A stretch of DNA of 16,497 nt, taken from the UHGV virus genome UHGV-0097332. The stretch is one strand, 5' to 3'. The stretch comes from a virus. A program made the translations under genes and the position numbers. The first letter of the stretch is position 1, and the number at the start of each line of letters is the position of its first letter. The notes beneath the pieces were generated by a model, which had not been told where the DNA came from, ran no database searches, and saw nothing but the letters and a program-made list of their open reading frames with translations. This document shows positions 1 through 16,497 of the stretch, in pieces.

Positions 1-89
1 GCGTTATCACGGTAATGATTAACAGCCCATGACAGGCAGACGATGATGCAGATAATCAGAGCAGAGATAATCGCGGTTAACCTGCTCAT
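1..89 (-). CDS. Rz: Rz i-spanin, N-terminal part (runs off the window start)
   Basis: Minus-strand ATG at 89-87 overlaps the endolysin stop (ATGA). Translation [29 protein letters not shown] matches the signal-anchor N-terminus of lambda-family Rz as I recall it. Position directly after the endolysin fits. Confidence 0.8.
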
Positions 90-583
90 TGCAGCCCCCA
101 CAAACAGACTTCACGCTCAATATCACGACGGGTCATCAGCCCTTTCCATTGCTTACCGCCAGCGTATGTCCAGCGACGTAGCTGGTCACATGCGCCTTTG
201 ATATCGCCCTGGTTTATTTTGCGAAGAAGCGTCGATGTTCTGAAATTGCCTGCACCCACGTTGTAAACGAACGAGTAAAGAGCGCCGCGCGTTGTTTCCG
301 GTATATCGACTTTGATGTACGGGTTAATTTGTCTGGCGACCGTGGCAAGGTCTTTATTCAGGAGGGCTTTGCATTCTGCTTCGGTATACGTTTTACCGGG
401 AATGATGTCTTTTCCTGTATGCCCGTAACATACAGTCCATACACCAACTATGTCTTTGTAAGGATTATGTCTCACACCTTCCAGACCATCGTTACCACTT
501 GGGCCAGTGATTAACACAGATGCTATGGCAATAGCCCCACCACCAATAGCAGCAGCAACGGCTTTTCGTAATGATGGAGGCAT
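86..583 (-). CDS. R: SAR endolysin (T4-lysozyme-like, phage-21 R type)
   Basis: 165-aa ORF. N-terminal Gly/Ala-rich weakly hydrophobic helix ([20 protein letters not shown]) typical of a signal-anchor-release domain, followed by a lysozyme core. Recalled near-identity to the phage 21 endolysin. Start overlaps the holin stop. Confidence 0.93.
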
Positions 584-798
584 TATTCACCTCTCGCAGC
601 CTTTCGTCTGTCTTCTCTGATTTTGAAATACAGATTTGTCAGACAAGTGAGAAAACCCAACACAAGGCTTCCAAGCACTCCAATCGCAGCCCACTGTGAC
701 GGACTGACCTGATCCAACCACTGCAAAAACCAGTATCCTGCACTACCAGCAGATGTTCCGTAGGCAATGCCAGTTGAGATTTTGTCCATTGATTTCAT
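583..798 (-). CDS. S: Pinholin (class II holin, S21 type) with dual-start motif
   Basis: 71-aa ORF with two transmembrane helices and N-terminal MKSM (Met1/Met4 dual start expected to give antiholin and holin). GGAGG ribosome-binding site upstream. Lies immediately upstream of the SAR endolysin. Confidence 0.93.
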
Positions 799-916
799 AG
801 CAACGCCTCCGCCAGTAACGGATTGCGTAGTTCTTATATTGGGAAGGGGAAAAAAGAAGGCCGCAGCGTAACTATCACTGATGAATTCAGGATAGCCAGT
901 GGCTACGGCTCAGTTA

Positions 917-992
917 TGGTGCTGGTTAACGGACTTGAACCGCTACCCATTCGCTTACAAGGCGACCGCCCTACCATTGGAGATAAACCAGC
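917..992 (-). tRNA. tRNA-like gene, anticodon UGU (Thr) by hand folding; 76 nt with encoded CCA
   Basis: Minus-strand sequence GCTGGTT...GGTTCAAGTCC...AACCAGC-A-CCA. It has a 7-bp acceptor stem, U8, GG in the D-loop, a T-arm AGCGG/TTCAAGT/CCGTT, and anticodon loop CTTGTAA. The D-stem and the top of the anticodon stem each carry a mismatch, so it may be divergent or degenerate. Confidence 0.5.
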
Positions 993-997
993 ATATT

Positions 998-1072
998 TGG
1001 CGGGACAGCGTGGACTCGAACCACGATAAGAAGGTTAACAGCCTTCCGTAATGACCTTTATACGACTGACCC
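998..1072 (-). tRNA. tRNA-like gene, anticodon GUU (Asn) by hand folding; 75 nt with encoded CCA
   Basis: Minus-strand sequence GGGTCAG...GAAGG-CTGTTAA-CCTTC...CGTGG-TTCGAGT-CCACG-CTGTCCC-G-CCA. Anticodon and T arms are perfect; the acceptor stem has one T-T mismatch and the D-arm is atypical. It lies 5 nt upstream (in transcription direction) of the other tRNA-like gene and abuts the tR' U-tract. Confidence 0.5.
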
Positions 1073-1134
1073 AAATAAAAAATCCCGAAACCGTTGTGCA
1101 GGCTCTAACTATTACCTGCGAACTGTTTCGGGAT
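1073..1134 (-). terminator. tR' terminator (3' end of the short pR' transcript, lambda 6S RNA)
   Basis: 11-bp inverted repeat AATCCCGAAAC (1080-1090) / GTTTCGGGATT (1124-1134), followed on the minus strand by TTTTTTATTT. Matches the recalled lambda tR' sequence CCCGAAAC...GTTTCGGGATTTTTTAT. Confidence 0.8.
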
Positions 1135-1269
1135 TGCATTTTGCAGACCTCTCTGCCTGCGATGGTTGGAGTTCCAGACGATACGTCGAAGTGACCAACT
1201 AGGCGGAATCGGTAGTAAGCGCCGCCTCTTTTCATCTCACTACCACAACGAGCGAATTAACCCATCTTT

Positions 1270-1304
1270 GGGTCAAATTTACCCAACTTTATTCAAAAAG
1301 TCAA
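1270..1304 (-). promoter_or_regulatory. Late promoter pR' with Q-utilisation (qut) region
   Basis: On the minus strand: -35 TTGACT (1304-1299), 17-nt spacer, -10 TAAATT (1281-1276). Lies just downstream of Q and about 190 nt upstream of tR'. Matches the recalled lambda pR' sequence. Confidence 0.75.
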
Positions 1305-1346
1305 TATCATGCCGTTAATATGTTGCCATCCGTGGCAATCATGCTG

Positions 1347-1970
1347 CTAACGCGTGACCGCATTCAAAATGTTGTCTGCGATTGACTCTTCTTTGTGGCA
1401 TTGCACCACCAGAGCGTCATACAGCGGCTTAACAGTGCGTGACCATGTGGGTTGGGTAAGGTTGGGGATTAGCATCGTTACAGCGCGATATGCGGCGCTT
1501 GCTGGCATCCTTGAATAGCCGACGCCTTTGCATCTTCCGCACTCTTTCTCAACAACTCTCCCCCACTGCTCTGTTTTTGCTATATCAACCGCACGACCTG
1601 TACCGTGGCAATCTCTGCATCTTGCACCCTGTGTCGCGGCACTACGGCAATAATCCGCATAAGCGAATGTTGCGAGCACTTGCAGTACCTTTGCCTTAGT
1701 ATTTCCTTCAAGCTTTGCCACACCACGGTATTTCCCCGATACCTTGTGTGCAAATTGCATCAGATAGTTGATAGCCTTTTGTTTGTCGTTCTGGCTGAGT
1801 TCATGCTTACCGCAGAATGCAGCCATTCCGAATCCGGCTTGTGATTGCGCCATCCCCATAGCAGCCATCACATCAGTACCGGAAAGAGAGTCAGAAGCCG
1901 TAGCCCGTGGTGAGTCGCTCATCATCGGGCTTTTTGGCGAATGAAATTTAGCTACGCTTTCGAGTCTCAT
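1347..1970 (-). CDS. Q: Late-gene antiterminator Q (lambda type)
   Basis: 207-aa ORF MRLESVAKFHSPKSPMMSDS... with a Cys-rich zinc-binding segment (CRDCHGTG...CGRCKGVG). Matches lambda Q as I recall it. Sits directly upstream of pR'. Confidence 0.95.
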   Translation of the reverse strand: MRLESVAKFHSPKSPMMSDSPRATASDSLSGTDVMAAMGMAQSQAGFGMAAFCGKHELSQNDKQKAINYLMQFAHKVSGKYRGVAKLEGNTKAKVLQVLATFAYADYCRSAATQGARCRDCHGTGRAVDIAKTEQWGRVVEKECGRCKGVGYSRMPASAAYRAVTMLIPNLTQPTWSRTVKPLYDALVVQCHKEESIADNILNAVTR

Positions 1971-2155
1971 GGCCTTCCCCTTTTGCCCTGTTTGACCATC
2001 AGGACGCCGTTAACTATTACGTGACGCTCGCCTTTGCTGTCTCGGTTGTACTTGAGCACTGTTCCTCTTGCGCAGGAAAGCATCCTCGCCACTTCGGTCT
2101 GATTGCCTCGTGTCTGGATAAGAAGCTCTGGTATCGTTTGAATTGTGGCGTTCAT
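1967..2155 (-). CDS. ninH: NinH-like small DNA-binding protein
   Basis: 62-aa ORF whose core GNQTEVARMLSCARGTVLKY...IVNGVLMV resembles lambda NinH (orf-68). Stop overlaps the Q start. Confidence 0.75.
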   Translation of the reverse strand: MNATIQTIPELLIQTRGNQTEVARMLSCARGTVLKYNRDSKGERHVIVNGVLMVKQGKRGRP

Positions 2156-2514
2156 ACGCTCTCCAGTTCGGTGATTTTTATTCCAAGCCTTCCGCCTGGT
2201 ACTTTCACGCCACGAATTACGCGAATGTCATCGAATTGCTCGTCGTCTTCCGCAAATCCGGCGTGGATAAGAGAGTCGAGTAAACCTTTCAGGATGTTGT
2301 CGAGGTCGCGGCGGCGGGAGTCTGGAACGTCTGCGATGACTTTGATGCGGAGTCGTGATTTGGTGAAAATGTCTAACTTAAGTTGGCGGATGATTTGCTG
2401 AACGTCTTTTCGGTATTTCTGGCCTTTATCGCTGATGTAGTATTGACTTCCCCGTCTTCGCCAGTAGGTATTCAGCGACGGTGGGTATGGAAGTACAAAC
2501 TGATATTCGTTCAT
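2152..2514 (-). CDS. rusA: RusA-family Holliday-junction resolvase
   Basis: 120-aa ORF with conserved RusA features (PPSLNTYWRR, DxRRRDLDN, GGRL..I). It occupies the position of lambda ninG/rap in the nin region. Confidence 0.88.
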   Translation of the reverse strand: MNEYQFVLPYPPSLNTYWRRRGSQYYISDKGQKYRKDVQQIIRQLKLDIFTKSRLRIKVIADVPDSRRRDLDNILKGLLDSLIHAGFAEDDEQFDDIRVIRGVKVPGGRLGIKITELESV

Positions 2515-2801
2515 GGCTTAATCTTCCCCTCCTTCAGCAGGATCGCCTGCGTCCTGATCACGCCTTCGAGGTGGTAAAGTCTGGCGTCTTTGTTGTCGAG
2601 ATTATGGGTGCGTCGGTCGATTTCATCGTGACACGCGCTACAAGCCCATGCGCCGATCAGGTCGTCAGGTTTCATTCCCGTTCCGCAAATTCCAGCCATC
2701 CGGTAATGTGCCAGAACTGTAGTTTCAGGGTTGCCATTGCATATGCCGTAAATACGTACCTGGCATTCTCTGCCGCGCGCTTCTTTGCGTAGGTTAGCCA
2801 T
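2511..2801 (-). CDS. YbcO-like (DUF1364) nin-region protein, Cys-rich putative nuclease
   Basis: 96-aa ORF MANLRKEARGRECQVRI...CSACHDEIDRRTH resembling DLP12 YbcO as recalled. Overlapping stop/start with its neighbours. Confidence 0.7.
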   Translation of the reverse strand: MANLRKEARGRECQVRIYGICNGNPETTVLAHYRMAGICGTGMKPDDLIGAWACSACHDEIDRRTHNLDNKDARLYHLEGVIRTQAILLKEGKIKP

Positions 2802-3523
2802 TAAGCAGCCTCCCCTGTTACTTTCAGCATTCCGTTATCTAGCAGCTTTCTGGTCAGCCACTGTTGACCACGCCCGGTGATTTTTGTGGTGAACGATATC
2901 TGTATTCCGTGATTTGTGTTGACCGCTGTTTCTTTCACTGTGAAATAGCCGCGATCCATATATTCCTGCATTGGCACATTGCGCCGGGAACCTGAAGCAA
3001 TAAGGATTTTGTGATCGCGCATCCACGCAAACAGTTTGTTTGGACCAATTCCAACAACCTTTGCAAAGTTTCCAATCAAAATTCCGCTGGCCTCGCCAAC
3101 GCGATCGGCAAACTCAACTTTAGGTGCGGCAATTGCGAGCTGGTTTTCCAGTTGCATTTTCTGCTCAGCAAGGTCAGCAGCAAGGCGCAACGCTTCTGGT
3201 AGCGTTTTTGGGATATTAACCGCAGTTTCTTCAAGCTCTCGCCAACGGTCAACAAGACGAGCGGTGAATTCCGGCGACAACTGGGCAACGACAATAATGC
3301 TGTCGCGCTTGCCTTGTTCGCCTTCGAAGACGTAAGCCTCGACACTACGGCGCAGTCCTAAGTTATTGATTTTTTCGAAAACCTGCAATGCAGGAAGTTG
3401 AATAACTCCAGATTTAGCCAGGCGCTCTATTGATATTTTTACGTTATCTGGACGACTTCCCACCAACTCAGCGATTTCAATGCTTGTCATTTTGATGGCA
3501 TTGCCATTTATTAACTCATTCAT
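2801..3523 (-). CDS. Phage regulatory/antirepressor-like protein (Rha/Roi-type N-terminus, KilAC/ANT-type C-terminus)
   Basis: 240-aa ORF. The N-terminal part carries a helix-turn-helix-like segment (TSIEIAELVGSRPDNVKISIERLAKSG); the C-terminal part resembles KilA-C/ANT domains. Assigned from recalled family resemblance only. Confidence 0.55.
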   Translation of the reverse strand: MNELINGNAIKMTSIEIAELVGSRPDNVKISIERLAKSGVIQLPALQVFEKINNLGLRRSVEAYVFEGEQGKRDSIIVVAQLSPEFTARLVDRWRELEETAVNIPKTLPEALRLAADLAEQKMQLENQLAIAAPKVEFADRVGEASGILIGNFAKVVGIGPNKLFAWMRDHKILIASGSRRNVPMQEYMDRGYFTVKETAVNTNHGIQISFTTKITGRGQQWLTRKLLDNGMLKVTGEAA

Positions 3524-3692
3524 CGTCTTCTTCCTCGTACATTGAGCTATTCGGATCGCTCATCAGTTCTGCGCAGCAATCGGAGCACACGTGAACTTCC
3601 AGCACATGCAGCTTCTGACCGCAGTTAGCGCACGTTAAAGCTCGCTCGACGCTTTCTTTCTGGTATTGAAGGGATTGGGATGGGCTAAGCAT
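3516..3692 (-). CDS. ninF: NinF-like small Cys-rich protein (58 aa)
   Basis: Hand translation from the minus-strand ATG at 3692: [58 protein letters not shown]. Resembles lambda NinF (orf-56). Below the ORF-track length cutoff. Stop overlaps the next start. Confidence 0.7.
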   Translation of the reverse strand: MLSPSQSLQYQKESVERALTCANCGQKLHVLEVHVCSDCCAELMSDPNSSMYEEEDDE

Positions 3693-4065
3693 TATTGGCG
3701 TCCTGCATCATGAGAAATACAATCATGGCGGCGCGGAGAGGCGATTCACCGCAGAAGCAGTAGTCAGGAATATTTTCCCATTCCCAACAACCTTCCTCTA
3801 AATCACCTCCTGACCATGCGCACCATTCTTTTTCCGCTGTCATCCACATGGTGCTAATTTTGTTTTCAGTGATGATCGGATATGCGTCAGCGGCCATATT
3901 ACATGGGTCAAAATATCCGCAAGGCAAAAACTCACCACCATCAATTCCAGCCAAGTAAACTTCTTTCTTTTCTGGATCCCAGTCGTAATTGTTTTTTCCT
4001 AGCACGATATGCGCGACTTTTAAGTTAATTTCAAAATCACTTAACTGTGAATAATCCATTGTCAT
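3685..4065 (-). CDS. Hypothetical Trp/Cys-rich nin-region protein (about 126 aa)
   Basis: Start chosen at the ATG that overlaps the NinE stop (AAATGACAATGG); the ORF-track start at 4101 would overlap ninE. No family recognised. Confidence 0.5.
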
Positions 4066-4238
4066 TTCCTCGCACGATGTCTTAGCCACCGGATATCCCA
4101 CAGGTGAGCCGTGTAGTTGAAGGTTTTTACGTCAGATTCTTTTGGGATTGGCTTGCGTTTATTTCTGGAGCGCTTCGTTGGAAGGTATTTGCAGTTTTCG
4201 CAGATGATGTCGGTGATACTTCGTCGCTGTCGTCTCAT
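4062..4238 (-). CDS. ninE: NinE-like small basic protein (58 aa)
   Basis: Hand translation: [58 protein letters not shown]. Resembles lambda NinE (orf-60). Start ATG overlaps the NinB stop (ATGA). Confidence 0.7.
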
Positions 4239-4645
4239 TCATACCTCCTGTCGGTAAATCTGACACCCTGACCAATAGCCCAGGCTGTCGTGTACTCAAT
4301 CAGACTTGCCATGCGCTTCACACTCATCTGCGCGCTGCTTTCGCGAATGTTGACGTATTCGCCTTCAAGCCCGGGCAAAACATCAGCTTCCTGCTTTGTT
4401 GCCACTGCATGACCGCTTATCAACAAAACCTTCCATTGTTCTGGTTTTAACCATTTATCGCACCATTGAACCTGACGTGCGATATCCGCCAGCATCGCGT
4501 GAAATTTTGCGTTCTGGTCAAGGTTGCGCTTGTAGTCAGTAATGCGGATGGTGACTGGCTTGTCTTTATCGAGAGGAGTTTCGAGGATGGCGTTGATTGC
4601 GGCTTGCTGTTGTTGCTTACTTCGGAGGAAGATTGTTTGCTTCAT
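4235..4645 (-). CDS. ninB: NinB (orf-146 family) recombination protein
   Basis: 136-aa ORF with the NinB-like motif [22 protein letters not shown]; first gene of the nin cluster. Confidence 0.82.
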
Positions 4646-4652
4646 CGTTACC

Positions 4653-4859
4653 TCAACTCACAAAACGCCACGCCACTTTTGCTACGACAACAGGCATAAC
4701 ACCGATAATCACCCACAGGAAAATGCTACCGAAAAGCACACCAACCAGGTCTTTACCTTCGCCTACCAGCCGGACAAAACTGCTGGCAACCACAATGAAC
4801 GTCGCCACCATCCACATAGCACCGAGAATCCTCAATGCAGAAAAAATCAACTCAACCAC
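4653..4859 (-). CDS. Hypothetical small membrane protein (68 aa, two predicted transmembrane helices), GTG start
   Basis: Strong ribosome-binding site GGGGGAGAG six nt upstream of a GTG start. Highly hydrophobic product. Lies between the terminator at 4878-4918 and ninB. Confidence 0.4.
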   Translation of the reverse strand: MVELIFSALRILGAMWMVATFIVVASSFVRLVGEGKDLVGVLFGSIFLWVIIGVMPVVVAKVAWRFVS

Positions 4860-4877
4860 GATTTACTCTCCCCCAAA

Positions 4878-4918
4878 TAAAAAGGCCTGCGATTACCAGC
4901 AGGCCTTTATCTTTTTTT
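4878..4918. terminator. Bidirectional intrinsic terminator-like hairpin (possible tR2 analogue)
   Basis: Stem GGCCTGC (4884-4890) / GCAGGCC (4899-4905) with an 8-nt loop, flanked by an A-run upstream and TTTATCTTTTTTT downstream. It therefore looks like a terminator on both strands. Confidence 0.6.
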
Positions 4919-5518
4919 AACACGCTTTCGAGTCCTTTTAGATTTTTCCTTAAGATATTCCGCAAGTTTATCCTCATCATTATTAAATTGAGATAAAAGC
5001 TCATGCTCGCAATTAAGTGCTTTACTCGCATAAGTTCCATATAGTTTCTTTCTTGCTAGTGCTGCTATGAATGCTGCATCTTCTTTGCTATCGAAATACC
5101 CTAACGATATTGTCTTATTTTTATAACCAACATAAGACTTCCACCTGCCAGTTGTCTTATCCCAAGACACTCCAATCGCACCGGATGTGTTTAACCTATT
5201 CCCTACAATGTTTCTTGCATTCTGCTCCTCTGTTGCCAGTCTTAGATTTGAAATCCTATTGTCAAGTCTGTTCCCATTTACATGATCAATAAACTTAGGA
5301 GGCCATTTTTTGTATACATAGAACCAAGCAAGTCTATGCGCATAATACAAAACATTATTTATGCTAATGCATATATAACCACCACTAACACCTCCAGCAA
5401 TACTACCTTTTACTCTTACTACTGAATTTGTTTTTAGCCATTTAAATATTCCTGTTTCTGAGTCATATGATAATGTTGACAGAAGCTCATCGTGATCAAT
5501 TAGTTTTTTTATTCGCAT
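4907..5518 (-). CDS. HNH homing endonuclease with C-terminal AP2-type DNA-binding domain
   Basis: 203-aa ORF. HNH motif region YYAHRLAWFYVYKKWPPKFIDHVNGNRLDNRISNLRLATEEQNARN, then an AP2-like segment GVSWDKTTGRWKSYVGYKNKTISLGYFDSKEDAAFIAA. The gene is markedly AT-rich compared with its flanks. Confidence 0.85.
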   Translation of the reverse strand: MRIKKLIDHDELLSTLSYDSETGIFKWLKTNSVVRVKGSIAGGVSGGYICISINNVLYYAHRLAWFYVYKKWPPKFIDHVNGNRLDNRISNLRLATEEQNARNIVGNRLNTSGAIGVSWDKTTGRWKSYVGYKNKTISLGYFDSKEDAAFIAALARKKLYGTYASKALNCEHELLSQFNNDEDKLAEYLKEKSKRTRKRVKKR

Positions 5519-5596
5519 AAAGAATATACTTAATAATATATACAGTAAGAACCATTAGTAACGATAACCCTGCTATCAGCTCAGTGATGTAGATGG

Positions 5597-6973
5597 TCAT
5601 ACGTCAGCCCCTTGTGCATATCGTCTGCCACGCGCAGCAGGTGCATTTGATGCTGTGCAAATCTGTCTGGCTTCATCCTGGTCACATGCAACAAAGTGTC
5701 CGTTACAGAACCGCTGGTAAACCGTACCAAGTGAGCCAAAACGGTTTTTCGTCACGATGATTTCAGCAAATGGCGCGGCGCTACTGTTCTCGTCATATAC
5801 CGCTTCCCGATAGAGCATGATGATTGAGTCTGCGTCCTGCTCAATGCTTCCTGAATCACGCAAATCTGCGTTTGTCGGGCGTTTGTTTGGTCGCTTCTCA
5901 ACATCGCGTGAAAGCTGACTTAGGGAGATAACAGGCGTTTTCAGGTCTTTCGCCATCGCCTTAAGGCTTCCTGAGATGTGAGCAATTGCGAGGTCGTTGC
6001 GGTCTGCTTTCGGCTTCTCAATCAGGCCAAGATAATCCACCATGATGAGTGAGAGGTTTGGATTTTCCTGTTTGTGTCGTTCTGCGATTGAGCGTATTTC
6101 TTCGACCGATAACCGCGAGGCATCGACTACCCATACATCCAAATCTGCAAGCTGACTCATGCCGTTAGCAACACGCGCCCAGCCTTCGTCATCCATCGAT
6201 GCAGGATTTCGCAGTACGCTAACCGACATCCTCCCGGCGTTGGCAATGCTTCGCTCTGCAATCTGCAATGCGCTCATTTCCATTGAGAAAATCAATACCC
6301 CGCGCCGGACGTCAGAACCAGGAATAACGCGGCTTGCAACGCCTTCGGCAATCTTCAGCGCCAGTTCGGTTTTCCCCATACCAGGACGAGCAGCGATTAT
6401 CACAAGGTCTTCTGCGTTCATCCCTCCGGTGATGGCATCAAGTTCTTCGATTCCGGTCTTCAGGGTATCTGACTCTTCTCCGTTCCTCAGACGCCTGTCA
6501 AGCGTGTCAGTGTAGTCAGTGATGATTTCCCCTAACCGTACAGGTTTAACCTCGTCACGGGGCTTTCTGATGGCTGAGAGACGTTTTACAAGTTCATCCA
6601 TCGCCTGACTCGATGCGTCGATGGTTCCGCTTTGGATTGGTTCACGCATTTCATCCATGATTTTCAGCACCAGACGGCGGTGATAGTTATCCGCGACCAT
6701 TCCGGCATATCCCTTCAGGTTTGCGGCACTCGGGCAGTTTTTGCTGGTCATCAGGATTGACGTGAAATGCTCCTCTCCGCACTCCTCGGCAACCATCAGC
6801 GCGTCGATTAGGTTTCTGTTTCGCGCCTGCTTGCGGATAACCTCGAAGGCTTTTCTGTAGAGCGGAATTGAAAACGCTTCCGGCTCCAGCGTTGCCAGAA
6901 CGTCACTGGCGGTTGGAGTTAATCCACCAATCAGCAGGCCACCGATAACGCTCGCTTCGATATCCTGTCTCAT
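5597..6973 (-). CDS. Replicative DNA helicase, DnaB family (P22 gene-12 type)
   Basis: 458-aa ORF with Walker A GMGKTE, Walker B IMVDYLGL, and DnaB-like motifs. Start overlaps the stop of the upstream initiator gene. Confidence 0.93.
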
Positions 6974-7948: not shown

Positions 7949-7980
7949 AATGACTCCTGTGGATTGATCCAGTAATTCCC

Positions 7981-8277: not shown

Positions 8278-8361
8278 TTGTTAATTTTCCAATAGTGAAT
8301 AGTTAGTTGAAAGGTATGCGTGGAAACGCATATGGCCTTAGTTGGTCAGATATCTTGGGGC

Positions 8362-8407: not shown

Positions 8408-8414
8408 GTGTTAC

Positions 8415-8615: not shown

Positions 8616-8641
8616 ACAACCTCCTTAGTACATGCAACCAT

Positions 8642-8705
8642 TATCACCGCTAGAGGTAAAATAGTCAACACGCACGGTGTTAGATATTTATCCCTTGCGG
8701 TGATA
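8642..8705. promoter_or_regulatory. Right operator OR1-OR2-OR3 with divergent pR (minus) and pRM (plus)
   Basis: OR1 TATCACCGCTAGAGGTA (8642-8658), OR2 CAACACGCACGGTGTTA (8666-8682), OR3 TATCCCTTGCGGTGATA (8689-8705). pR -35 TTGACT and -10 GATAAT are readable on the minus strand. The cI ATG at 8716 sits immediately after pRM, consistent with a leaderless cI message. Confidence 0.9.
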
Positions 8706-8712
8706 GATTTAA

Positions 8713-9429
<717 letters not shown>

Positions 9430-9436
9430 CACGTAA

Positions 9437-9874: not shown

Positions 9875-10232
9875 CAAGGTTGCTCAGCTTCGTCCAAATC
9901 AAAACATATCTCGCCCAATTGGACACTATTCCACTGATGATGCATACTCACGGCATGGTGGAGGAAACGGCGGAGGTAACATGCTTGAGGCTAGAGTTGC
10001 AAAGCTAGAGTCTGATGTTGAATACATCAAGCGCGATCTCGCTGAAGTAAAGTCAGATATAAAATCTGTAGATTCTCGTCTGTCAGGTATTGAGACAAGC
10101 ATTAGCTCAGCAAAAATCACCATCAAGGCATCTGCGGTCGTTGTCAGTTTCGTGTTCGCATTTTGCGCCTACATTTTTGGAAGTTATGTTTCCAAAATCC
10201 TTGATGCCTTAAACGGACTCGTTCTTAAGTAA
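9861..10232 (+). CDS. Hypothetical small coiled-coil protein with C-terminal transmembrane helix, in the rexB position (alternative start ATG 9981 gives 83 aa)
   Basis: 123-aa ORF overlapping the upstream ORF by 14 nt. Gly-rich segment, then coiled-coil heptads (LEARVAKLESDVEYIKRDLAEVKSDIKSVDSRL), then hydrophobic helix AVVVSFVFAFCAYIFGSYV. GGAGG motifs lie just upstream of the internal ATG at 9981. Followed directly by a terminator. Confidence 0.7.
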   Translation: MSLDNKVAQLRPNQNISRPIGHYSTDDAYSRHGGGNGGGNMLEARVAKLESDVEYIKRDLAEVKSDIKSVDSRLSGIETSISSAKITIKASAVVVSFVFAFCAYIFGSYVSKILDALNGLVLK

Positions 10233-10239
10233 CACACAA

Positions 10240-10265
10240 CCCGGCCTCAGCGCCGGGTTTTCTTT
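10240..10265 (+). terminator. Intrinsic terminator ending the cI-cassette operon (timm equivalent)
   Basis: Stem CCCGGC (10240-10245) / GCCGGG (10252-10257) with loop CTCAGC, then TTTTCTTT. Matches the sequence I recall downstream of lambda rexB. Confidence 0.8.
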
Positions 10266-10422
10266 GCCTCACGATCCCCTTCACCCAATAACACATAACC
10301 AATTGTATTTATTTGAAAATTAATAGATACAACTCACTAAACATCGCAATTCAGATCTCTCGATCACCTCCCAAGCCACACACCCCTGCAAAAAAATAAA
10401 TCTATATAAAAAACATACAGAT

Positions 10423-10493
10423 AACCATATGCGGTGATAAATTATCTCTGGCGGTGTTGACATAAATACCACTGGCGGTGATACTAAACACAT
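10423..10493 (+). promoter_or_regulatory. pL promoter with OL3-OL2-OL1 operators
   Basis: OL3-like AACCATATGCGGTGATA (10423-10439), OL2 TATCTCTGGCGGTGTTG (10443-10459), OL1 TACCACTGGCGGTGATA (10467-10483). -35 TTGACA (10457-10462) and -10 GATACT (10481-10486). Confidence 0.9.
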
Positions 10494-10553
10494 CAGCAGG
10501 ACGCACTACTCACCAGGGCGGTGAATATACAACGATTCGAATATGAATCTACG

Positions 10554-10568
10554 GCGCTGACAAAGCGC
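10554..10568 (+). promoter_or_regulatory. nutL boxB hairpin (P22-type)
   Basis: GCGCTGACAAAGCGC: 5-bp stem with loop TGACA-type. Lies about 65 nt downstream of the pL start and upstream of N. No convincing boxA was found by eye. Confidence 0.65.
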
Positions 10569-10733
10569 AATAACCAAAGTGAACTTTGGGGTGTGGTGAA
10601 GGGTTCATGGACGGGAATATGTCGCACGTAAAGCGGCGAGGCCTGCGGGACTATTGCCGAATTGAAGTAGGCCGAAACAGGTCGAAATGGGTCTCCCACC
10701 TACCACACCACCAAAGTTCATCAGGAGGTCTAT

Positions 10734-11117
10734 ATGACACGCAGAACTCAGTTCAAAGGCAATTCACGTTCTCGTCGTCGTGAGCGTTTAAAGGCAAAGG
10801 CATTAGCTAACGGCGTACTGGCCCGCGAAGAAGCAATAAGTTCAGAAGTATTACACCGCCCTACTCTAAGCAGAGCGCAGATTCAGGCTAAAGGTACTCA
10901 CGAAACGCCTGATCGCATAGAAGACGCTAAGCCAATTAAGTTCATGGCACAGGACGTGATCTGGCAACAGAAAGAATACAGACGCAATCTGGAGCGAGCG
11001 GCCATTGTGTACGCGAATGAGTTTGGACATAAGCAACCAGAAACTGGTGTATGTCTTCCAAATGTAGCTCTTTACGCGGCAGGCTACCGGAAATCAAAAC
11101 AACTGACAGCGAGGTAA
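10734..11117 (+). CDS. N: N-like transcription antiterminator (arginine-rich motif; not lambda N)
   Basis: 127-aa ORF with an AGGAGG ribosome-binding site. N-terminal arginine-rich motif GNSRSRRRERLKAKA. First gene after pL/nutL. The boxB loop matches the P22 type as recalled. Confidence 0.78.
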   Translation: MTRRTQFKGNSRSRRRERLKAKALANGVLAREEAISSEVLHRPTLSRAQIQAKGTHETPDRIEDAKPIKFMAQDVIWQQKEYRRNLERAAIVYANEFGHKQPETGVCLPNVALYAAGYRKSKQLTAR

Positions 11118-11119
11118 TT

Positions 11120-11482
11120 ATGGGTCAGGAAGAAAAATATGAGCTTAAAAAGCTCATTGGAGAAGACGCCATAGAAGAAATTGCAGCATTAACAACAGCT
11201 ATAAAGAATATTAGGTATGCGCTAAATACGCTTATCTCCTCATGCGACAAAAATAGCAGGGAATTTTTGATACTTGGCGCAGCTCTAGGAATAGTTGATG
11301 CGGCAACGCTTCACCTAATTACTCATGACGATATTCTTATTGAGCCGTATGAAACATTACTGCTTGTCAGGCAAAAAATGGCTGATGCCGCAGCAAATGG
11401 AGACCTTCAACTTTACATCGACTTAAGGAAAGTATTAAGGCGAATGGTCAGAACTGAAGGAGATATCCCCCTGACAAAGTAA
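11120..11482 (+). CDS. Hypothetical early-left protein (120 aa)
   Basis: ATG 2 nt after the N stop (TAATTATGG). Acidic, helical-looking product; no family recognised. The ORF-track extension 11051-11119 overlaps N and is discounted. Confidence 0.55.
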   Translation: MGQEEKYELKKLIGEDAIEEIAALTTAIKNIRYALNTLISSCDKNSREFLILGAALGIVDAATLHLITHDDILIEPYETLLLVRQKMADAAANGDLQLYIDLRKVLRRMVRTEGDIPLTK

Positions 11483-11512
11483 GGGGGTGAAGAGGCTATT
11501 TCAGGAATAAAA

Positions 11513-12007
11513 TTAATAATTTGTCAGCGGCGGAACATATACAGGCTTAGGGGCTGGCGCTCTATACATCCGGTATTCATTCTTACAGCGAGGACATGAA
11601 TGCACAAAGAATCCATTAGATTTTATAGTAACCGTGCTTGGTTGAAGTATCGATATTTTATGTTCGCCGAAGCAATGTGCACAAAGGTTATGCTGCTGAA
11701 TAGAAGGATCGGAATGACTCTTAGGTCGATACACGACAGAACCACCTTCAGTTGTATGAAGTTCATAATTCTCAGCTTGCACAACAAACATCTTGATTTT
11801 TCTATTTTCATCTCGAAGCTTCATTGCGATCTCCTTCTCGGCCTGATAAAGGCCAGAGAGCTCCGCATTAAGCATCTGTAAGTCAGTTATTCTTTGGTGT
11901 AGATCACCAATAGCTTTAGCGATAACCGCATCGTCTCTGGTTTCTTTTATTGTCTTCAGCAGATCATAAGCCTGTTTCGCGGCAGTTATACCAGATAACA
12001 CATCCAT
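11513..12007 (-). CDS. Hypothetical coiled-coil protein with C-terminal zinc-ribbon (CxxC...CxxC), antisense to the pL operon
   Basis: 164-aa ORF on the opposite strand to all flanking early-left genes. AGAGAG ribosome-binding site upstream of the ATG. C-terminal motif CAHCFGEHK...SCPRCKNEY. AT-rich. Confidence 0.6.
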   Translation of the reverse strand: MDVLSGITAAKQAYDLLKTIKETRDDAVIAKAIGDLHQRITDLQMLNAELSGLYQAEKEIAMKLRDENRKIKMFVVQAENYELHTTEGGSVVYRPKSHSDPSIQQHNLCAHCFGEHKISILQPSTVTIKSNGFFVHSCPRCKNEYRMYRAPAPKPVYVPPLTNY

Positions 12008-12303
12008 ATAAATTACTCTCTTACTGTAGGGGTGAATAGAGTTTATCCGATTTCTCGCTGTAGGGGTACTCGAGAACCACCGAGCCTGATGTGGTTAAAA
12101 GACAGGCATACGAATAAACACTGCACTGTGTATTCATTCCAACGAGTGAATACACGGAGCAATGTCGCTCGTAACTAAACAGGAGCCGACTTGTTCTGAT
12201 TATTGGAAATCTTCTTTGCACTCCAATGTGAGGGCCTTTTTATATGCATACCAATAACGCTTCACTCGAGGCGTTTTCGTTATGTATAAATAAGGAGCAC
12301 ACC

Positions 12304-12444
12304 ATGCAATATGCCATTGCAGGGTGGCCTGTTGCTGGCTGCCCTTCCGAATCTTTACTTGAACGAATCACCCGCAAATTACGTGACGGATGGAAACGAC
12401 TCATCGACGTACTTAATCAGCCAGGAGTTCCCAAAAATGGATAA
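12304..12444 (+). CDS. cIII: CIII (FtsH/HflB inhibitor), 46 aa, ending at TAA relative to the 54-aa lambda protein
   Basis: AAGGAG ribosome-binding site 7 nt upstream. MQYAIAGWPVAGCPSESLLERITRKLRDGWKRLIDVLNQPGVPKNG matches lambda CIII residues 1-46 as recalled. The stop is TAA where lambda has a Ser codon; the out-of-frame downstream codons would still read NTYGYPD. Confidence 0.85.
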   Translation: MQYAIAGWPVAGCPSESLLERITRKLRDGWKRLIDVLNQPGVPKNG

Positions 12445-12550
12445 AACACTTATGGCTATCCAGACTAAATTCACTATCGCCACTTTTATTGGCGATGAAA
12501 AGATGTTTCGTGAAGCCGTAGAAGCCTACAGAAAATGGAGGTCAAAATGA
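12437..12550 (+). CDS. kil: Kil-like small protein (37 aa; lambda Kil is an FtsZ inhibitor)
   Basis: ATG overlaps the cIII 3' end. MDKTLMAIQTKFTIATFIGDEKMFREAVEAYRKW... resembles the N-terminus of lambda Kil as recalled; the C-terminus differs and is shorter. Confidence 0.6.
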   Translation: MDKTLMAIQTKFTIATFIGDEKMFREAVEAYRKWRSK

Positions 12551-12735
12551 TTCCGGTAGAACTGGCGAAAACCCCAGAGTTAAGTCGATTAAAAAGAGAA
12601 TATCACATTGCTGAGGCTCGTTACTGGCGTAAGGCGGGAGATAAATCAAAGAAACAACTTTGTTTATGGCAGGCACAAAGAGAGCGCATGAATGAGCGCG
12701 AGTTTCTTTCCTGCCCATCCGAATTACCATTCTGA
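12547..12735 (+). CDS. Hypothetical 62-aa protein
   Basis: ATG overlaps the kil stop (ATGA). No family recognised; basic, helical-looking. Confidence 0.4.
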   Translation: MIPVELAKTPELSRLKREYHIAEARYWRKAGDKSKKQLCLWQAQRERMNEREFLSCPSELPF

Positions 12736-12743
12736 GGCAAATT

Positions 12744-13424
12744 ATGGGAACTGCGACATTAATACTCGGTGAATCTGGCACCGGAAAGTCAACCAGCATG
12801 AGAAATATCAATCCAGAGGAAGCAATACTTATAAAACCAATAGGCAAGCCGCTACCATTTAAATCAAAAGACTGGCTTGCATGGGATGCCAGAGCAAAAA
12901 AAGGAACCGTAGTTACCACTGACAAATGGCACGTAATAGTTGCTGTAATTAAGCGTGCTCACGAATACGGAAAAAGAATCGTTATTGTTGATGACTTCCA
13001 GTATGTGATGAGCAATGAGTTTATGCGCCGCTCAGAAGAAAAATCGTTTGATAAATTTACTGAGATAGGCCGCCACGCATGGGAGGTGATTAAGGCTGCA
13101 CAGGATGCACCTGATGACCTGAGAGTCTATTTTCTTGCACATACCGAAGAAACCCCTATGGGGCGCGTGAAAATGAAAACTATCGGCAAAATGCTGGACG
13201 AGAAAATCACTGTCGAAGGCATGTTTACTATAGTTCTTCGCACTCTTACCCACGATGACCAGTTCTTTTTCACCACGAAAAACAACGGTGCAGACACTGT
13301 TAAATCCCCAATGGGAATGTTTGATTCCAATGAGATTGATAACGATCTCTCTTTCGTCGATGCCACTGTTTGTGATTACTACGGCATCAATAATGTTCAT
13401 CAAATTAAGGAAAACGCCGCATGA
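12744..13424 (+). CDS. P-loop ATPase, RecA-like core (putative Sak4/AAA_24-type recombination protein)
   Basis: 226-aa ORF. Walker A GESGTGKST at residues 9-17 and Walker B IVIVDDFQ. Size and position (where lambda has its Red genes) suggest a Sak4-like protein; the family assignment is from memory. Confidence 0.65.
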   Translation: MGTATLILGESGTGKSTSMRNINPEEAILIKPIGKPLPFKSKDWLAWDARAKKGTVVTTDKWHVIVAVIKRAHEYGKRIVIVDDFQYVMSNEFMRRSEEKSFDKFTEIGRHAWEVIKAAQDAPDDLRVYFLAHTEETPMGRVKMKTIGKMLDEKITVEGMFTIVLRTLTHDDQFFFTTKNNGADTVKSPMGMFDSNEIDNDLSFVDATVCDYYGINNVHQIKENAA

Positions 13425-14008
13425 GCAACGTGATTTTTACTTATAACGAAGAAGCAGCACTGACCGCAGGGCAAGGTGGTTTTATTAACGAAACTGGTGC
13501 TCATATCATTACCATTACTGAAGCAGAACTAAAGCAATCAGAAAAAGGAGCCAAATTTATTGAGTTTTCTGGCGAATCTGACGACGGACGTAAAATCCAA
13601 TATCTTAGCGTCTGTGTTCAGAAAAATGACGGAACGGAAAACAAATTTGGCGCAAATGTCGTTCACGCCATGATGGGGTGTGCCGGGATTGGACAATTAA
13701 CGCAGCATATGGTTTCCGCCAGTAAATTTGTTGCACCTGAATTTCATGGAAAGAAAATCGGGTTAGTGCTCCAGAAAGTATTAACCACAAACAAAAAGAC
13801 TGGCGCAGACAGCTACCAGATGGAAATACGCATCCCGTTTATTGCACAAACAGGTCAAACCCTTAAAGAAAAGGCAGAAGGCAAGCAACCAGAAACTATC
13901 GCCAACATGGTTGCCAATCTCAAAGATAAAGACAATCGCTCTAAAAACGTAAGCCAGAATCATGCAGATGATTATGGTTACAGCCAGAACGATTACCCTG
14001 CTTTCTGA
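13421..14008 (+). CDS. Hypothetical protein partnered with the ATPase (possible single-strand-DNA-binding protein, DUF669-like)
   Basis: 195-aa ORF whose start overlaps the ATPase stop. Function inferred only from the commonly seen gene pairing, not from a motif I can point to. Confidence 0.45.
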   Translation: MSNVIFTYNEEAALTAGQGGFINETGAHIITITEAELKQSEKGAKFIEFSGESDDGRKIQYLSVCVQKNDGTENKFGANVVHAMMGCAGIGQLTQHMVSASKFVAPEFHGKKIGLVLQKVLTTNKKTGADSYQMEIRIPFIAQTGQTLKEKAEGKQPETIANMVANLKDKDNRSKNVSQNHADDYGYSQNDYPAF

Positions 14009-14031
14009 TTACTGAAAATAAGGCTCCCATT

Positions 14032-14325
14032 ATGCCAGCGCCTCTGTATGGTGCGGATGACCCGCGCCGCTGTTCCGGCAATTCCGTATTGGAGGTGCTG
14101 GATAAATTCAGAAAAAACTACGACCTGATAATGTCGCTACCGCAGGAAACGAAAGAGGAAAAGGAATTTCGCCATTGTATATGGCTTGCAGAGAAAGAAG
14201 AACGCGAGCGAATTTACCAGACATCAATCCGACCATTCCGCAAAGCCACATATACCCACTTCCCTGAAATTGACCCACGCCTGCGTAATTACCGCTCACG
14301 CTATGGCGCTATCAGTAATGACTGA
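14032..14325 (+). CDS. Hypothetical 97-aa protein
   Basis: ORF with a plausible ribosome-binding site, in the same orientation as the operon; no family recognised. Confidence 0.5.
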
Positions 14326-14335
14326 GGAATTTACC

Positions 14336-14503
14336 ATGAGAGGACTTGCATACAATCCCGGCATTCTTCCGGCAGAAATGATTATTCGCCAACGCGTAAA
14401 GCCAATGCCATCGAGAGAGGAATTGCTTAAGAGAAATAGTTTCGGTTCTGTTAATGACAACAAATATCTGAATGCGATGTGGCGCAAAGGAGGCAACCAG
14501 TGA
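14336..14503 (+). CDS. Hypothetical 55-aa protein
   Basis: GAGGAA ribosome-binding site 7 nt upstream of the ATG at 14336. Stop overlaps the next start. Confidence 0.4.
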
Positions 14504-14754
14504 GTAATTCAGCACGACTACAGCTTGGTTTTTCACCGCTATCAAAAACTATCATGCTGGCAAAAATGCGCGATGTTGAAGGTGGACGTATGCGCGTTGG
14601 CAATGATCCAGGTCGTGATGTTACCAATGAGGCTGCTCAATTGGTGTGGCAACTGGTCATGGCTGAAGGTGGTGAGATAGTGTGGGAGCTGGATGATGGT
14701 TCTCGCATGGTGTTGAAGGCAGAAAAGCAGGAGGCAACCAGTGAGCAAGATTGA
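14500..14754 (+). CDS. Hypothetical 84-aa protein (GTG start)
   Basis: GTG at 14500 is preceded by GGAGG and overlaps the upstream stop (GTGA). An ATG at 14554 is an alternative start. Confidence 0.4.
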
Positions 14755-15430
14755 CTATCAGGCACTGCGTGAAAAGGCAGAGAAAGCAACGTGTGGTGTG
14801 TGGTCGCTCGAATATGGAGAGGAGAGATTTGATGCTGGTGATGCGCTAATTCATCGTGAAGTTGTTGGATATCTTCCCATTTGCAGAATTGAAGGAGCGC
14901 ATCCTGAAAGCGGTTTCGATGAAGATTTCCAAATGGAACAGCAGGCCAATGCTGAATTCATCGCTGCAGCCAATCCGGCTACTGTGCTGGCACTGCTGGA
15001 TGAACGGGAAAGAAACCAGCAATACATCAAACGCCGCGACCAGGAGAACGAGGATATTGCGCTTACGGTAGGGAAGCTGCGTGTTGGGCTTGAGGCCGCA
15101 GAGAAGCGCAACGCTGAATTACAAAGCGAGAATGCATACATCCGCAACCGGTACAAAGAACTGGACCTATTAATCGGGAAAAACATTCTGGTCATGCAGG
15201 CTGCCATTATCGAATGGCAGGCAACTGGCGACGCTAAGAGCGGACTGGCATGGATTTATAACACACTGTTTGGCCCAGGCGAATTGCCGGACGAATCTGA
15301 GAAAGATGCTCAGGCCTACTTTAATCGCAAATATGCACCGATTGACGAAAAGCTTATGGCGCTTCACAAGTGGTTTTGGGAACAAAATGAAGCTGAGCGC
15401 GCCGCTGGCATTCGCATCAAAGGAGAGTGA
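14741..15430 (+). CDS. Hypothetical 229-aa coiled-coil protein (possibly Ead/Ea22-like)
   Basis: GTG start preceded by the same AGGAGGCAACCAGTGAG motif seen at 14486. Central coiled-coil region (ERNQQYIKRRDQENEDIALTVGKLRVGLEAAEKRNAELQSENAYIRNRYKEL). The Ea22-like name is a weak recollection. Confidence 0.55.
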   Translation: MSKIDYQALREKAEKATCGVWSLEYGEERFDAGDALIHREVVGYLPICRIEGAHPESGFDEDFQMEQQANAEFIAAANPATVLALLDERERNQQYIKRRDQENEDIALTVGKLRVGLEAAEKRNAELQSENAYIRNRYKELDLLIGKNILVMQAAIIEWQATGDAKSGLAWIYNTLFGPGELPDESEKDAQAYFNRKYAPIDEKLMALHKWFWEQNEAERAAGIRIKGE

Positions 15431-15431
15431 T

Positions 15432-15947
15432 ATGGCGTTAACACACCGCGAACTCTGTCAGATTGCGTACAAGTTCCTTAAGCGCAACGGGTTCAAGGTT
15501 TGTTTTCATGACCGCTTTATAGCTGTAACCAGTACCGGAGAACAGCCAGATGCTATGGGATTCAGAAATTCAGCATCATGCCTGATAGAGGCGAAATGTT
15601 CTCGTGCTGACTTGTTGGCAGACAGAAAAAAGCGTTTTCGTAAAAATCCGTCTCTTGGAATGGGCGACTGGCGATTCTTTATTAGTGAGCCGGGAATTAT
15701 TTCAATTGAGGATTTACCACCTGGCTGGGGATTACTTCACGTTGTTAACGGAAGAGTACGGAAAGTACATGGGTGGCCCAAGGGTAATTGCTGTTGGGGT
15801 AATCCTGACGATAAGCCATTTACTGGAAATAAGCAGGTTGAATGCGATTACATGTTATCGGCATTAAGGCGCATGGAGTTGAGAGGGCACCTTAATGAAA
15901 TATATGACGGTGTAATTGTTAATAAGAAAGAAGGAAACGCGGCATGA
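15432..15947 (+). CDS. Hypothetical 171-aa protein
   Basis: ATG at 15432, one nt after the upstream stop, with a GGAGAG ribosome-binding site. The ORF-track extension back to 15270 overlaps the upstream gene and is discounted. No family recognised. Confidence 0.55.
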   Translation: MALTHRELCQIAYKFLKRNGFKVCFHDRFIAVTSTGEQPDAMGFRNSASCLIEAKCSRADLLADRKKRFRKNPSLGMGDWRFFISEPGIISIEDLPPGWGLLHVVNGRVRKVHGWPKGNCCWGNPDDKPFTGNKQVECDYMLSALRRMELRGHLNEIYDGVIVNKKEGNAA

Positions 15948-16497
15948 CCACTATTACCAAAGAACGCCTGCTGACAATCCAGCAGTGGCGCGAAACATAC
16001 GGACCGGGTAGCAACGTTGTACTGCCAGCAGAAGAAGCGGAAGAACTGGCACGAATTGCACTGGCATCACTGGAAGCAGAACCAGTTGCTTATATTTTCA
16101 AACATCCGGCCGGAAAATTATTCTGGACTTTGACGGATGAAAGCAATAAAGATCAATCGGACGTTATTCCTGTTTATGCTGCCGCGCCTGCGCCAGTAGT
16201 GCCGGATAATGCATCAGGGTCTCTTGCTTATGCTTACAAAGAGCTTACGCCTGAGATTATGCGCAACCATTTAGCTGTATTCGAGCGATATGGAATAGCC
16301 CCAAACGATAGCACTACCACAATTCAGGCACTGCGAATCGCGCTGGATGGTATAGAGCGGAGCGACGCCATGCTTCAGGGTAAATCCGAACAACCACAAA
16401 ACGCACAACAAAATATTCCGGAAAATATTCCCGGTGGCAACTCTCCGGTAACTCCGGATGGTTGGATAAGCTGTAGTGCGCGAATGCCTGAAAAGGG
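15944..16497 (+). CDS. Hypothetical protein, 3'-truncated by the window end
   Basis: ATG overlaps the upstream stop (ATGA). The frame stays open for 184 codons to the window end (MTTITKERLLTIQQWRETYGPGSN...DGWISCSARMPEK). Absent from the ORF track, presumably because no stop lies in the window. Confidence 0.5.
   Translation, partial: MTTITKERLLTIQQWRETYGPGSNVVLPAEEAEELARIALASLEAEPVAYIFKHPAGKLFWTLTDESNKDQSDVIPVYAAAPAPVVPDNASGSLAYAYKELTPEIMRNHLAVFERYGIAPNDSTTTIQALRIALDGIERSDAMLQGKSEQPQNAQQNIPENIPGGNSPVTPDGWISCSARMPEK

Follow-up and report, generated by a model that had tools for sequence, protein, structure and literature searches.

The 16,497-nt stretch of the virus genome UHGV-0097332 (the window, meaning this whole stretch of DNA) is almost certainly the part of an Escherichia coli lambdoid temperate phage or prophage that holds early control, replication, recombination and the start of lysis, here in reverse orientation and built as a patchwork of circulating modules. 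All of these modules are already known and several have been experimentally characterised, while their exact combination is absent from the collections searched. Such an absence is normal for lambdoid prophages, and the window is a textbook patchwork, not a new phenomenon. A first-pass annotation, made from the sequence, had proposed a mosaic of lambda immunity and Q, 21-type lysis, P22-type N/nut and replication, and non-Red recombination. The mosaic is located as claimed, and the best single records cover 47% of the window among phages and 60% among E. coli genomes. Uniform high identity to one described phage, which would speak against a mosaic, was looked for by whole-window megablast and was not found: the top record, HK97, covers its 47% in nine pieces at 96.8% identity. 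In total, 717 of 50,697 phage records and 4859 of 5426 complete E. coli genomes match the window somewhere.

We compared the window by blastn and tblastn with a panel of 10 references, which include HK97, lambda, P22, HK620, HK629, phage 21, HK022, 933W and two prophages, using identity per 250-bp bin, lists of high-scoring segment pairs (HSPs) and a gene-by-gene tblastn table. In the plot against lambda, 21, P22, HK97, HK022, 933W and others that the first-pass annotation had suggested, the nearest reference switches sharply along the window. Identity drops abruptly from 94–100% to undetectable between neighbouring segments, and adjoining segments differ in their nearest relative, as follows.

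1–1082: phage 21, 96.5%, in one piece; Rz start, R, S and both transfer RNAs (tRNAs)
1075–1981: lambda 44781–43875, 97%; Q, pR', 6S, tR'
1247–3658: HK97, 95%; Q to ninF
about 3746–4024: none in the panel; divergent ninX allele
4057–4910: HK629, 96% (HK620-like too); ninE, ninB, small open reading frame (ORF)
4653–5600: HK022, 98%; HNH-AP2 endonuclease
5568–7369: HK97, 98%; P and the C-terminal part of O
7282–7770: P22, 93% (HK97 here just 64–77%); N-terminal part of O, origin
7724–9429: HK97, 99%; gp53, cII, cro, cI (lambda 97% over 8401–9425)
9437–10232: E2348/69 prophage only, 100% at the amino acid (aa) level; rex-slot cassette
10242–11115: HK97, 98%; OL, pL, nutL, N (933W 99% over 10493–11115; lambda 89% over 10238–10524 only)
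11058–14484: HK620/HK629, 98%; hkaQ to abc2
14484–16497: assorted pieces of Shiga toxin (Stx) phages and of Shigella and E. coli prophages; no record covers at least 80%

The HK97-like share, about 47% of the window, comprises Q to ninF, the P helicase, the C-terminal part of O, gp53, cII, cro, cI, OL, pL, nutL, N and abc2. Despite this patchwork of nearest relatives, the gene order is that of a lambdoid phage throughout. In the ORF map the minus strand carries the pR operon and the beginning of the late operon, the plus strand cI and the pL operon; together with Pfam and PHROG assignments it gives the order lysis, Q, nin, P, O, cII, cro, OR, cI, (rex slot), OL, N, cIII/kil, recombination and ea genes, which is also the order annotated in HK97, lambda, P22 and HK620. 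When the same overall arrangement was sought through the exact O protein and, in IMG/VR, through the tR'|tRNA-Asn joint, no locus matched the window over more than about 8.8 kb.

The joints between segments favour gene boundaries, as had been proposed for the rex slot and tR', though not without exception. The 164 HSP ends from the panel were clustered into 52 breakpoint clusters, and a cluster was counted as near a gene end when it lay no more than 30 bp away. By this measure 29 of the 52 are near, against 9.4 ± 2.8 expected from the 18% of the window that falls within 30 bp of a gene end, and a count of 29 did not come up in any of 20000 randomisations. At the rex slot and tR' the agreement is to a few bases. 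Lambda homology breaks off at 9425, with 4 bp of cI left, and restarts at 10238, 6 bp past the second cassette ORF and where rexB has its stop in lambda. The joint between lambda and phage 21 falls at 1075–1082, in the T-run of the late terminator abutting tRNA-Asn, and the phage 21 match starts at 1082. On the other side, the lambda match of 1075–1981 ends at lambda 44781, where the 194-nt 6S RNA, which begins at 44588, has its 3' end. In several other cases the junction falls within a gene. The one in O (7282–7369) is some 300–400 bp from either gene end, another falls in the conserved 3' end of N (11058–11115), in sequence common to HK97, HK620 and P22, and others are found in ninF/ninX, in the Ea22-like gene (14951–15110) and near the 3' end of kil (12539).

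A patchwork of this kind could also arise during assembly, as a chimeric contig from co-resident lambdoid prophages that share repeats. E. coli genomes with up to 17 places matching the window offer the material for such an error, and the junctions in short shared sequences are of the sort where assemblers can jump. We nevertheless consider an artefact very unlikely, because independent records run across every junction tested. For the tR'|tRNA-Asn joint there are 33 IMG/VR contigs, one of which spans 507–1981, from the 21-type holin into lambda Q. HK97 spans 1247–3658 and 5568–7369, HK629 spans 4057–4910 and HK022 spans 4653–5600; the E2348/69 prophage runs through 8018–11110 (cI, cassette and OL) at 99%. 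The stretch 3450–4300, including the divergent ninX and its flanks, is contiguous in E. coli MP1 at 98.6%, and 10800–11500, with the joint between N and hkaQ, occurs in six complete genomes. Moreover, the ORFs are all intact and syntenic. Descent from a single ancestral genome with unequal rates of change among its genes, and without horizontal exchange of modules, would suit the places where identity is graded (the central part of roi at about 80% to every reference in the 250-bp bins; P at 74–92% to P22), but it is extremely improbable given that identity falls from 95–100% to undetectable within a few bases at many sites, that non-homologous genes share slots (Sak4/SSB versus Red/Erf, pinholin versus lambda S, the rex-slot cassette versus rexAB or HK97 gp48/49), and that an identical O protein sits beside many unrelated immunity and recombination modules.

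Interacting partners in the window are always of the same ancestry. The repressors cI and Cro agree in this with the operators OR and OL, N with both nut sites, and Q with pR' and qut; in replication, the N-terminal domain of O goes with the iterons and the C-terminal part with P. The pinholin likewise matches the SAR (signal-anchor-release) endolysin, and Sak4 its single-stranded DNA-binding protein (SSB). N with its nut sites is the clearest case. That partners travel together agrees with published models: the literature has established both pervasive mosaicism among lambdoid phages and the co-transfer of interacting genes (Juhala et al. 2000 as cited in PMC2629481; PMC9836094; PMC2327257).

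The window may be pictured as an HK97-like backbone (about 47%) into which other alleles would have been swapped: the phage 21 lysis cassette with two tRNAs, the lambda 6S/tR', the HK629/HK620 ninX-ninE-ninB block, the HK022 HNH-AP2 gene, a P22-type N-terminal domain of O with its iterons, a two-gene cassette for rexAB, and the HK620 hkaQ-hkaP-cIII-kil-Sak4-SSB block in place of Red. These exchanges would have proceeded by recombination of co-resident lambdoid genomes, at short conserved stretches or illegitimately, and mostly at gene or module ends, after which combinations that work would have been selected; the same three sources set out this view of recombination and selection. The conserved stretches concerned may include the T-run of the terminator, the 3' end of N, ninE/ninF, the start of Rz and the stop of cI.

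Nothing that we found contradicts the mosaic, and a few points weigh against too simple a version of it. Strict exchange of whole genes fails at the junctions inside O, the 3' end of N, ninF/ninX and Ea22. The direction and order of exchange cannot be inferred, 'backbone' is a descriptive convenience derived from a 10-reference panel, and we only infer the mechanism of recombination. On the 16.5 kb at hand, the source may be a viable phage or a defective prophage. The label 'HK97 with insertions' was considered and set aside as too strong, since HK97-like sequence makes up less than half of the window and nothing shows which way the exchanges went.

The antitermination system consists of the following elements.

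8362–8407, minus strand: nutR, with boxA CGCTCTTTT (8407–8399), a spacer hairpin and boxB TCGCTGACAAAGCGA (8376–8362)
10554–10568, plus strand: nutL boxB GCGCTGACAAAGCGC, identical to the P22 nutL boxB 15-mer and to HK97 and 933W
10734–11117, plus strand: N antiterminator, HK97/933W type (Pfam N_peptide, 1.3e-15)

Both the N protein and its boxB loops had been assigned to the P22 type, and the assignment stands for the RNA sites. The nutL 15-mer equals that of P22 (GCGCUGACAAAGCGC, with a GACAA pentaloop; PMC11480772, figure 1), and the nutR boxB CGCTGACAAAGCG has a 5-nt GACAA loop in the predicted fold and is identical in HK97 and nearly so in 933W. The protein is P22-like only in its RNA-binding motif and C-terminus. 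It shares 125 of 127 residues with HK97 N and with 933W N (98%), compared with 37 of 95 aligned residues with P22 gp24, for which the tblastn match covers 23% of N. What the two proteins share is limited to an arginine-rich motif, F.GN.[KR][TS]RR.ER, and to about 22 residues at the C-terminus; the middle is unrelated. Neither lambda N nor 21 N gave a significant match to the N of the window. The 933W protein is annotated as 'similar to N protein of bacteriophage H19B', and going by this annotation the N of the window would be of the H-19B type; a literature search returned no paper on that assignment among those available. N, nutL and nutR are all of the 933W/HK97 type (95–99%) and flank the immunity cassette on both sides, while the cassette itself, between the nut sites (about 8422–10493), is unlike 933W except at 10240–10313 (91%).

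Both nut sites also carry a small extra hairpin just 5' of boxB (nutR, 8376–8407, minus strand; nutL, 10530–10568, plus strand). In nutR this hairpin, GGACATTCGTCC, sits between boxA and boxB; its counterpart in nutL is ATTCGAATATGAAT. On the 5' side of the nutL boxB, a clear canonical boxA was not evident.

Between the nut sites lies the immunity region with the cassette that occupies the rex slot.

8415–8615, minus strand: cro, lambda type (97% aa identity to lambda, 95% to HK97)
8642–8705: OR1 (8642–8658, one mismatch to lambda), OR2 (8666–8682) and OR3 (8689–8705), both identical to lambda, with pR and pRM
8716–9429, plus strand: cI repressor, lambda immunity type (100% aa to HK97, 99% to lambda)
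9437–10232, plus strand: two-gene rex-slot cassette, a 145-aa soluble all-beta protein followed by a 123-aa coiled-coil protein with a C-terminal transmembrane segment
10238–10266, plus strand: tImm immunity terminator, hairpin and T-run (predicted fold -14.6 kcal/mol, z -2.8)
10423–10485: OL3 (10423–10439, one mismatch), OL2 (10443–10459) and OL1 (10467–10483), the latter two identical to lambda
10457–10462 and 10480–10485: pL hexamers TTGACA and GATACT

By the sequences of cI, Cro and the operators, the immunity is of the imm-lambda type, and its closest described carrier is HK97. The first-pass annotation had called the region lambda-derived: the type holds (cI 99%, Cro 97%, four of six operators identical), whereas the nearest relative is HK97 and not lambda. 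The same is seen in the OL/pL region, which is 96–98% identical to HK97 and 89% to lambda. The match to lambda and HK97 restarts at tImm, and lambda homology stops at 10524, within the pL leader. OR1, TACCTCTaGCGGTGATA, is one base off lambda; OR1 (TACCTCTAGCGGTGATA) and OL3 (the complement of TATCACCGCATATGGTT) carry one-base changes each, the other four operators being identical.

The rex-slot cassette is the least-understood piece of the window. Its proteins belong to phrog_5893 (145 aa) and phrog_6136 (123 aa), both PHROGs of unknown function. The smaller one has a weak XhlA-like match and a single transmembrane segment at residues 83–111, and the AlphaFold2 model of the larger one (mean predicted local distance difference test score, pLDDT, 87.5) suggests a beta-sandwich. 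A Foldseek search of the latter against the PDB returned generic beta-sandwiches only (carbohydrate-binding modules, RhoGDI, MD-1/2 and the Wzt carbohydrate-binding domain), with TM scores of 0.45–0.6 and 7–15% identity, and PADLOC matches for the cassette and other ORFs of unknown function were marginal (E 0.003–0.004) and judged to be noise. There was no tblastn match to lambda RexA/RexB and no significant Pfam or PADLOC family, so that the likeness to Rex consists of position and the pairing of a soluble with a membrane protein. The cassette is rare, found in 16 of 5426 complete E. coli genomes and in 20 protein clusters out of 5.8 billion, all from Enterobacterales. It is 77% identical at the nucleotide level to genes 45/44 of epsilon34, which were noted in 2008 as rex-like in position and without database matches (PMC2629481). 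Transcription of the pair would start at pRM, together with cI, and stop at tImm. It is plausible that the cassette acts in exclusion as Rex does, and more tentatively the two genes may form an uncharacterised, prophage-expressed exclusion or abortive-infection pair working like RexAB, which makes the cassette a candidate for phage-exclusion screens.

In the replication module the exchange reaches inside a single gene.

5597–6973, minus strand: P, DnaB-type replicative helicase (Pfam DnaB_C 8e-79, DnaB 1.8e-13)
6970–7800, minus strand: O replication initiator, an intragenic chimera (Pfam Phage_rep_O 4e-36)
7365–7461: origin iterons inside O, about four repeats of about 20 bp (TTTACCGAAT..GT.AA), in repeat families D1, D2 and I1–I3
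7787–8277, minus strand: gp53-like small ORF (7787–7948) and cII (7981–8277), 100% and 95% aa to HK97

The pair had been read as an O-like initiator with a DnaB-type helicase in place of lambda O/P, and the Phage_rep_O and DnaB_C matches bear this out. Its ascription to the P22 type fits the N-terminal domain of O and the origin (7282–7770, 93% nt to P22), with the iterons falling in a P22-like segment that matches the annotated P22 rep_origin, but not P, which is nearest to HK97 (99% aa, against 90% to P22 gp12). The C-terminal part of O, up to about 7369, is HK97-like (98%) and presumably recruits the likewise HK97-like helicase. Because O is chimeric, its whole-protein figures are low (79% aa to P22 gp18 and 70% to HK97 O). 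The exact O protein is very common, being listed for 3268 blocks of public assemblies, and its neighbours vary widely. In each of the six loci displayed, the adjacent immunity, recombination (RecT, Erf, Rad52) and Q/lysis modules were combined differently. This spread among varied neighbours is a direct picture of mosaicism.

The left end of the window joins a phage 21-type lysis cassette to a lambda-type late control region.

1–89, minus strand: Rz (i-spanin) gene, 5' end only, truncated at the window edge (90–93% aa to lambda, HK97, HK620 and 21)
86–583, minus strand: SAR endolysin, R21 type, T4-lysozyme family (93% aa to full-length phage 21 R; Pfam Phage_lysozyme 5.9e-48)
583–798, minus strand: pinholin S21, 71 aa, dual start MKSM (99% aa to phage 21 S; Pfam Phage_holin_2_1 8e-36)
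917–992 and 998–1072, minus strand: tRNA-Thr(TGT) and tRNA-Asn(GTT), directly 3' of the tR' T-run (ARAGORN; Rfam tRNA, 48 and 55 bits)
1075–1134, minus strand: tR' terminator, end of the lambda 6S RNA
1276–1304, minus strand: late promoter pR' (TTGACT-17-TAAATT) with the qut region downstream (promoter scan; 96–99% to lambda)
1347–1970, minus strand: Q late antiterminator, lambda type (99% aa to lambda, HK97, HK620 and HK022, 97% to P22 gp23)

The proposed pinholin/SAR type of lysis agrees with the identities of S and R to phage 21 (99% and 93% aa) and with the Pfam family 'Bacteriophage P21 holin S' (8e-36). Judged by sequence, the endolysin is of the SAR type, with a hydrophobic, Gly/Ala-rich segment at residues 7–28 of its N-terminus, and the pinholin has the strongly hydrophobic second transmembrane domain (residues 35–58) of a class II holin. 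Phage 21 has the identical tRNA pair in the identical place. Elsewhere the pair occurs as a small separate module (about 855–1082) joined to lambda-type holins. Similarly, the lambda character claimed for Q, pR' and tR' is supported by Q at 99% aa, by 97% identity to lambda over 1075–1981 and by the matching pR' hexamers. Within this part, lambda is the sole panel match of 1075–1247 (6S body and tR'), at 99.4%; tR' was called by this identity, the folded 56-nt tR' piece having lacked its 5' arm.

Recombination functions lie in the distal part of the pL operon.

12744–13424, plus strand: Sak4, a core-only RecA-like single-strand annealing ATPase (phrog_2872, 1.1e-107; Pfam AAA_24)
13421–14008, plus strand: cognate SSB of Sak4 (phrog_743, 1.1e-66; 98% aa to HK620 HkaK)
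14032–14325, plus strand: Abc2 anti-RecBCD protein (Pfam Anti-RecBCD_p2, 6.6e-64)

What had been recognised as a non-Red P-loop ATPase with a partner corresponds to the characterised Sak4 of HK620 (99% aa to HkaL, with the Walker A sequence GESGTGKS) and its SSB, followed by Abc2, which is 94–98% identical in aa to P22, HK97, HK620 and the E2348/69 prophage. The HK620 Sak4 is an ATP-dependent single-strand annealing protein that the SSB stimulates via its last six residues, NDYPPF (PMC5928155). The SSB tail in the window (13991–14008) reads NDYPAF, a single Pro-to-Ala change from HK620 in the interaction motif. The window has no Chi sites (0.3 expected).

Taken genome by genome, each named relative contributes some modules and lacks others. 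The early region of HK97 (NC_002167) is the best single match, 47% at about 97%, and shares ninH, rusA, DUF1364, roi, P (99% aa), cI (100% aa), N (98% aa), OR, OL, pL, nutL and abc2. It differs in its lambda-type S/R lysis genes, the lack of tRNAs, another 6S/tR' body, its own N-terminal domain of O with origin (64–77% nt), a Dam methylase, a lambda-type NinB, gp48/gp49 in the rex slot, and Erf-type recombination where the window has Sak4/SSB. HK620 and HK629 resemble the window over 11058–14484 at 98% (hkaQ, hkaP, truncated cIII, kil, hkaM, Sak4, SSB, abc2) and in the NinB/NinE block, and differ in immunity (434/L-like or P22-like), N, O/P (31% aa in the helicase) and lysis genes; HK629 additionally has a different Q. 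The EPEC (enteropathogenic E. coli) E2348/69 prophage (NC_011601, 2.61–2.63 Mb) is 99% identical over 8018–11110, from cII to N, and shares the rex-slot cassette (100% aa) and the tRNA-Thr/Asn pair. It departs from the window in having another Q, a holin and an endolysin of the lambda family, a Dam methylase and a different N-terminal part of O; its recombination is of the Rad52 type, accompanied by an HNH endonuclease and a classical SSB.

Phage 21 (OL657228) matches 1–1082 at 96.5%, with tRNA-Asn, tRNA-Thr, S21, R21 and the start of Rz in the same order after the terminator. Upstream it has its own Q21, pR' and Q-binding element (QBE), where the window has the lambda Q/pR'/tR', and the rest of its early genes, namely imm21, N21, lambda-type O/P and Red, either have no relation to the window or represent other types. 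Lambda (NC_001416) shares cI, Cro, four of six operators, the pL and pR' hexamers, tImm, Q, 6S/tR', cIII with its thermoregulator, and kil, whereas its rexAB, N and boxB, O/P, ren, Red/Gam, NinC/D/G/I and S/R are absent from the window. P22 is alike in the identical nutL boxB 15-mer, the arginine-rich core and C-terminal 22 or so residues of N, gp18/gp12 replication (O 79%, P 90% aa), Abc2 (94% aa), Q (97% aa) and related NinX/NinF; its C2/Cro immunity, Erf/Abc1 and gene 13/19 lysis genes are absent. The window has little import beyond annotation, and serves as a clean worked example of lambdoid mosaicism in which partners travel together. Its practical value lies in correct module names, namely an HK97/933W-type N with P22-type boxB, the HK620 Sak4/SSB and a chimeric O.

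The remaining genes fall into the nin region and the rest of the pL operon. The nin region comprises two parts and is adjoined by an endonuclease gene.

1967–3692, minus strand: ninH, rusA, DUF1364/YbcO, roi and ninF (HK97 match 1247–3658 at 95%; aa identities 84–100%)
3685–4859, minus strand: ninX (divergent allele), ninE, ninB (HK620/HK629 allele) and a small ORF with two transmembrane segments
4907–5518, minus strand: HNH_3 and AP2 homing-type endonuclease (Pfam HNH_3 8e-16, AP2 1e-7), between ninB and the P helicase

The divergent NinX is recognised by Pfam NinX (1.7e-12), and NinB is 97–99% identical in aa to HK620/HK629 compared with 39% to lambda, HK97 and P22. The endonuclease gene coincides with a dip in base composition (GC about 36%), is 99% identical in aa and 98% in nt to an ORF that HK022 carries without annotation, and has the appearance of a selfish insertion standing on its own. 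Endonucleases of this HNH_3-AP2 type are common in Stx phages.

On the pL side, Sak4 is preceded by three groups of genes and Abc2 is followed by the ea region.

11120–11482, plus strand: hkaQ-like ORF (99–100% aa to HK620/HK629; phrog_7374, unknown function)
11513–12007, minus strand: hkaP-like ORF, 164 aa, in the sieB position (99–100% aa to HK620/HK629; phrog_1244, unknown function)
12291–12735, plus strand: cIII with RNA thermoregulator (12291–12349; Rfam Lambda_thermo 88.5 bits), kil and an hkaM-like ORF
14336–16497, plus strand: 'ea' region with a DUF2737-like ORF, DUF7446, an Ead/Ea22-like ORF, a 171-aa ORF and an edge-cut ORF (Pfam, PHROGs)

The lambda-like nature of cIII, also noted in the first reading, is confirmed by 98% aa identity to lambda (100% to HK620) and the Lambda_thermo score. 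As in HK620, cIII and Kil are shortened (46 aa versus 54 in lambda and 37 aa versus 47, respectively; 12304–12550), with the thermoregulator intact. The hkaP-like ORF carries C-terminal CxxC...CxxC motifs and is annotated in HK620 as a putative superinfection exclusion protein. In the ea region, no single record was found that covers at least 80% of 14400–16497. Within its last stretch (15432–16497), the 171-aa ORF matches phrog_9263/phrog_631, of unknown function, and no Pfam family, and the next ORF starts at 15944 and runs off the window. This stretch, 15432–16497, belongs to the part of the ea region where the window is most finely mosaic.

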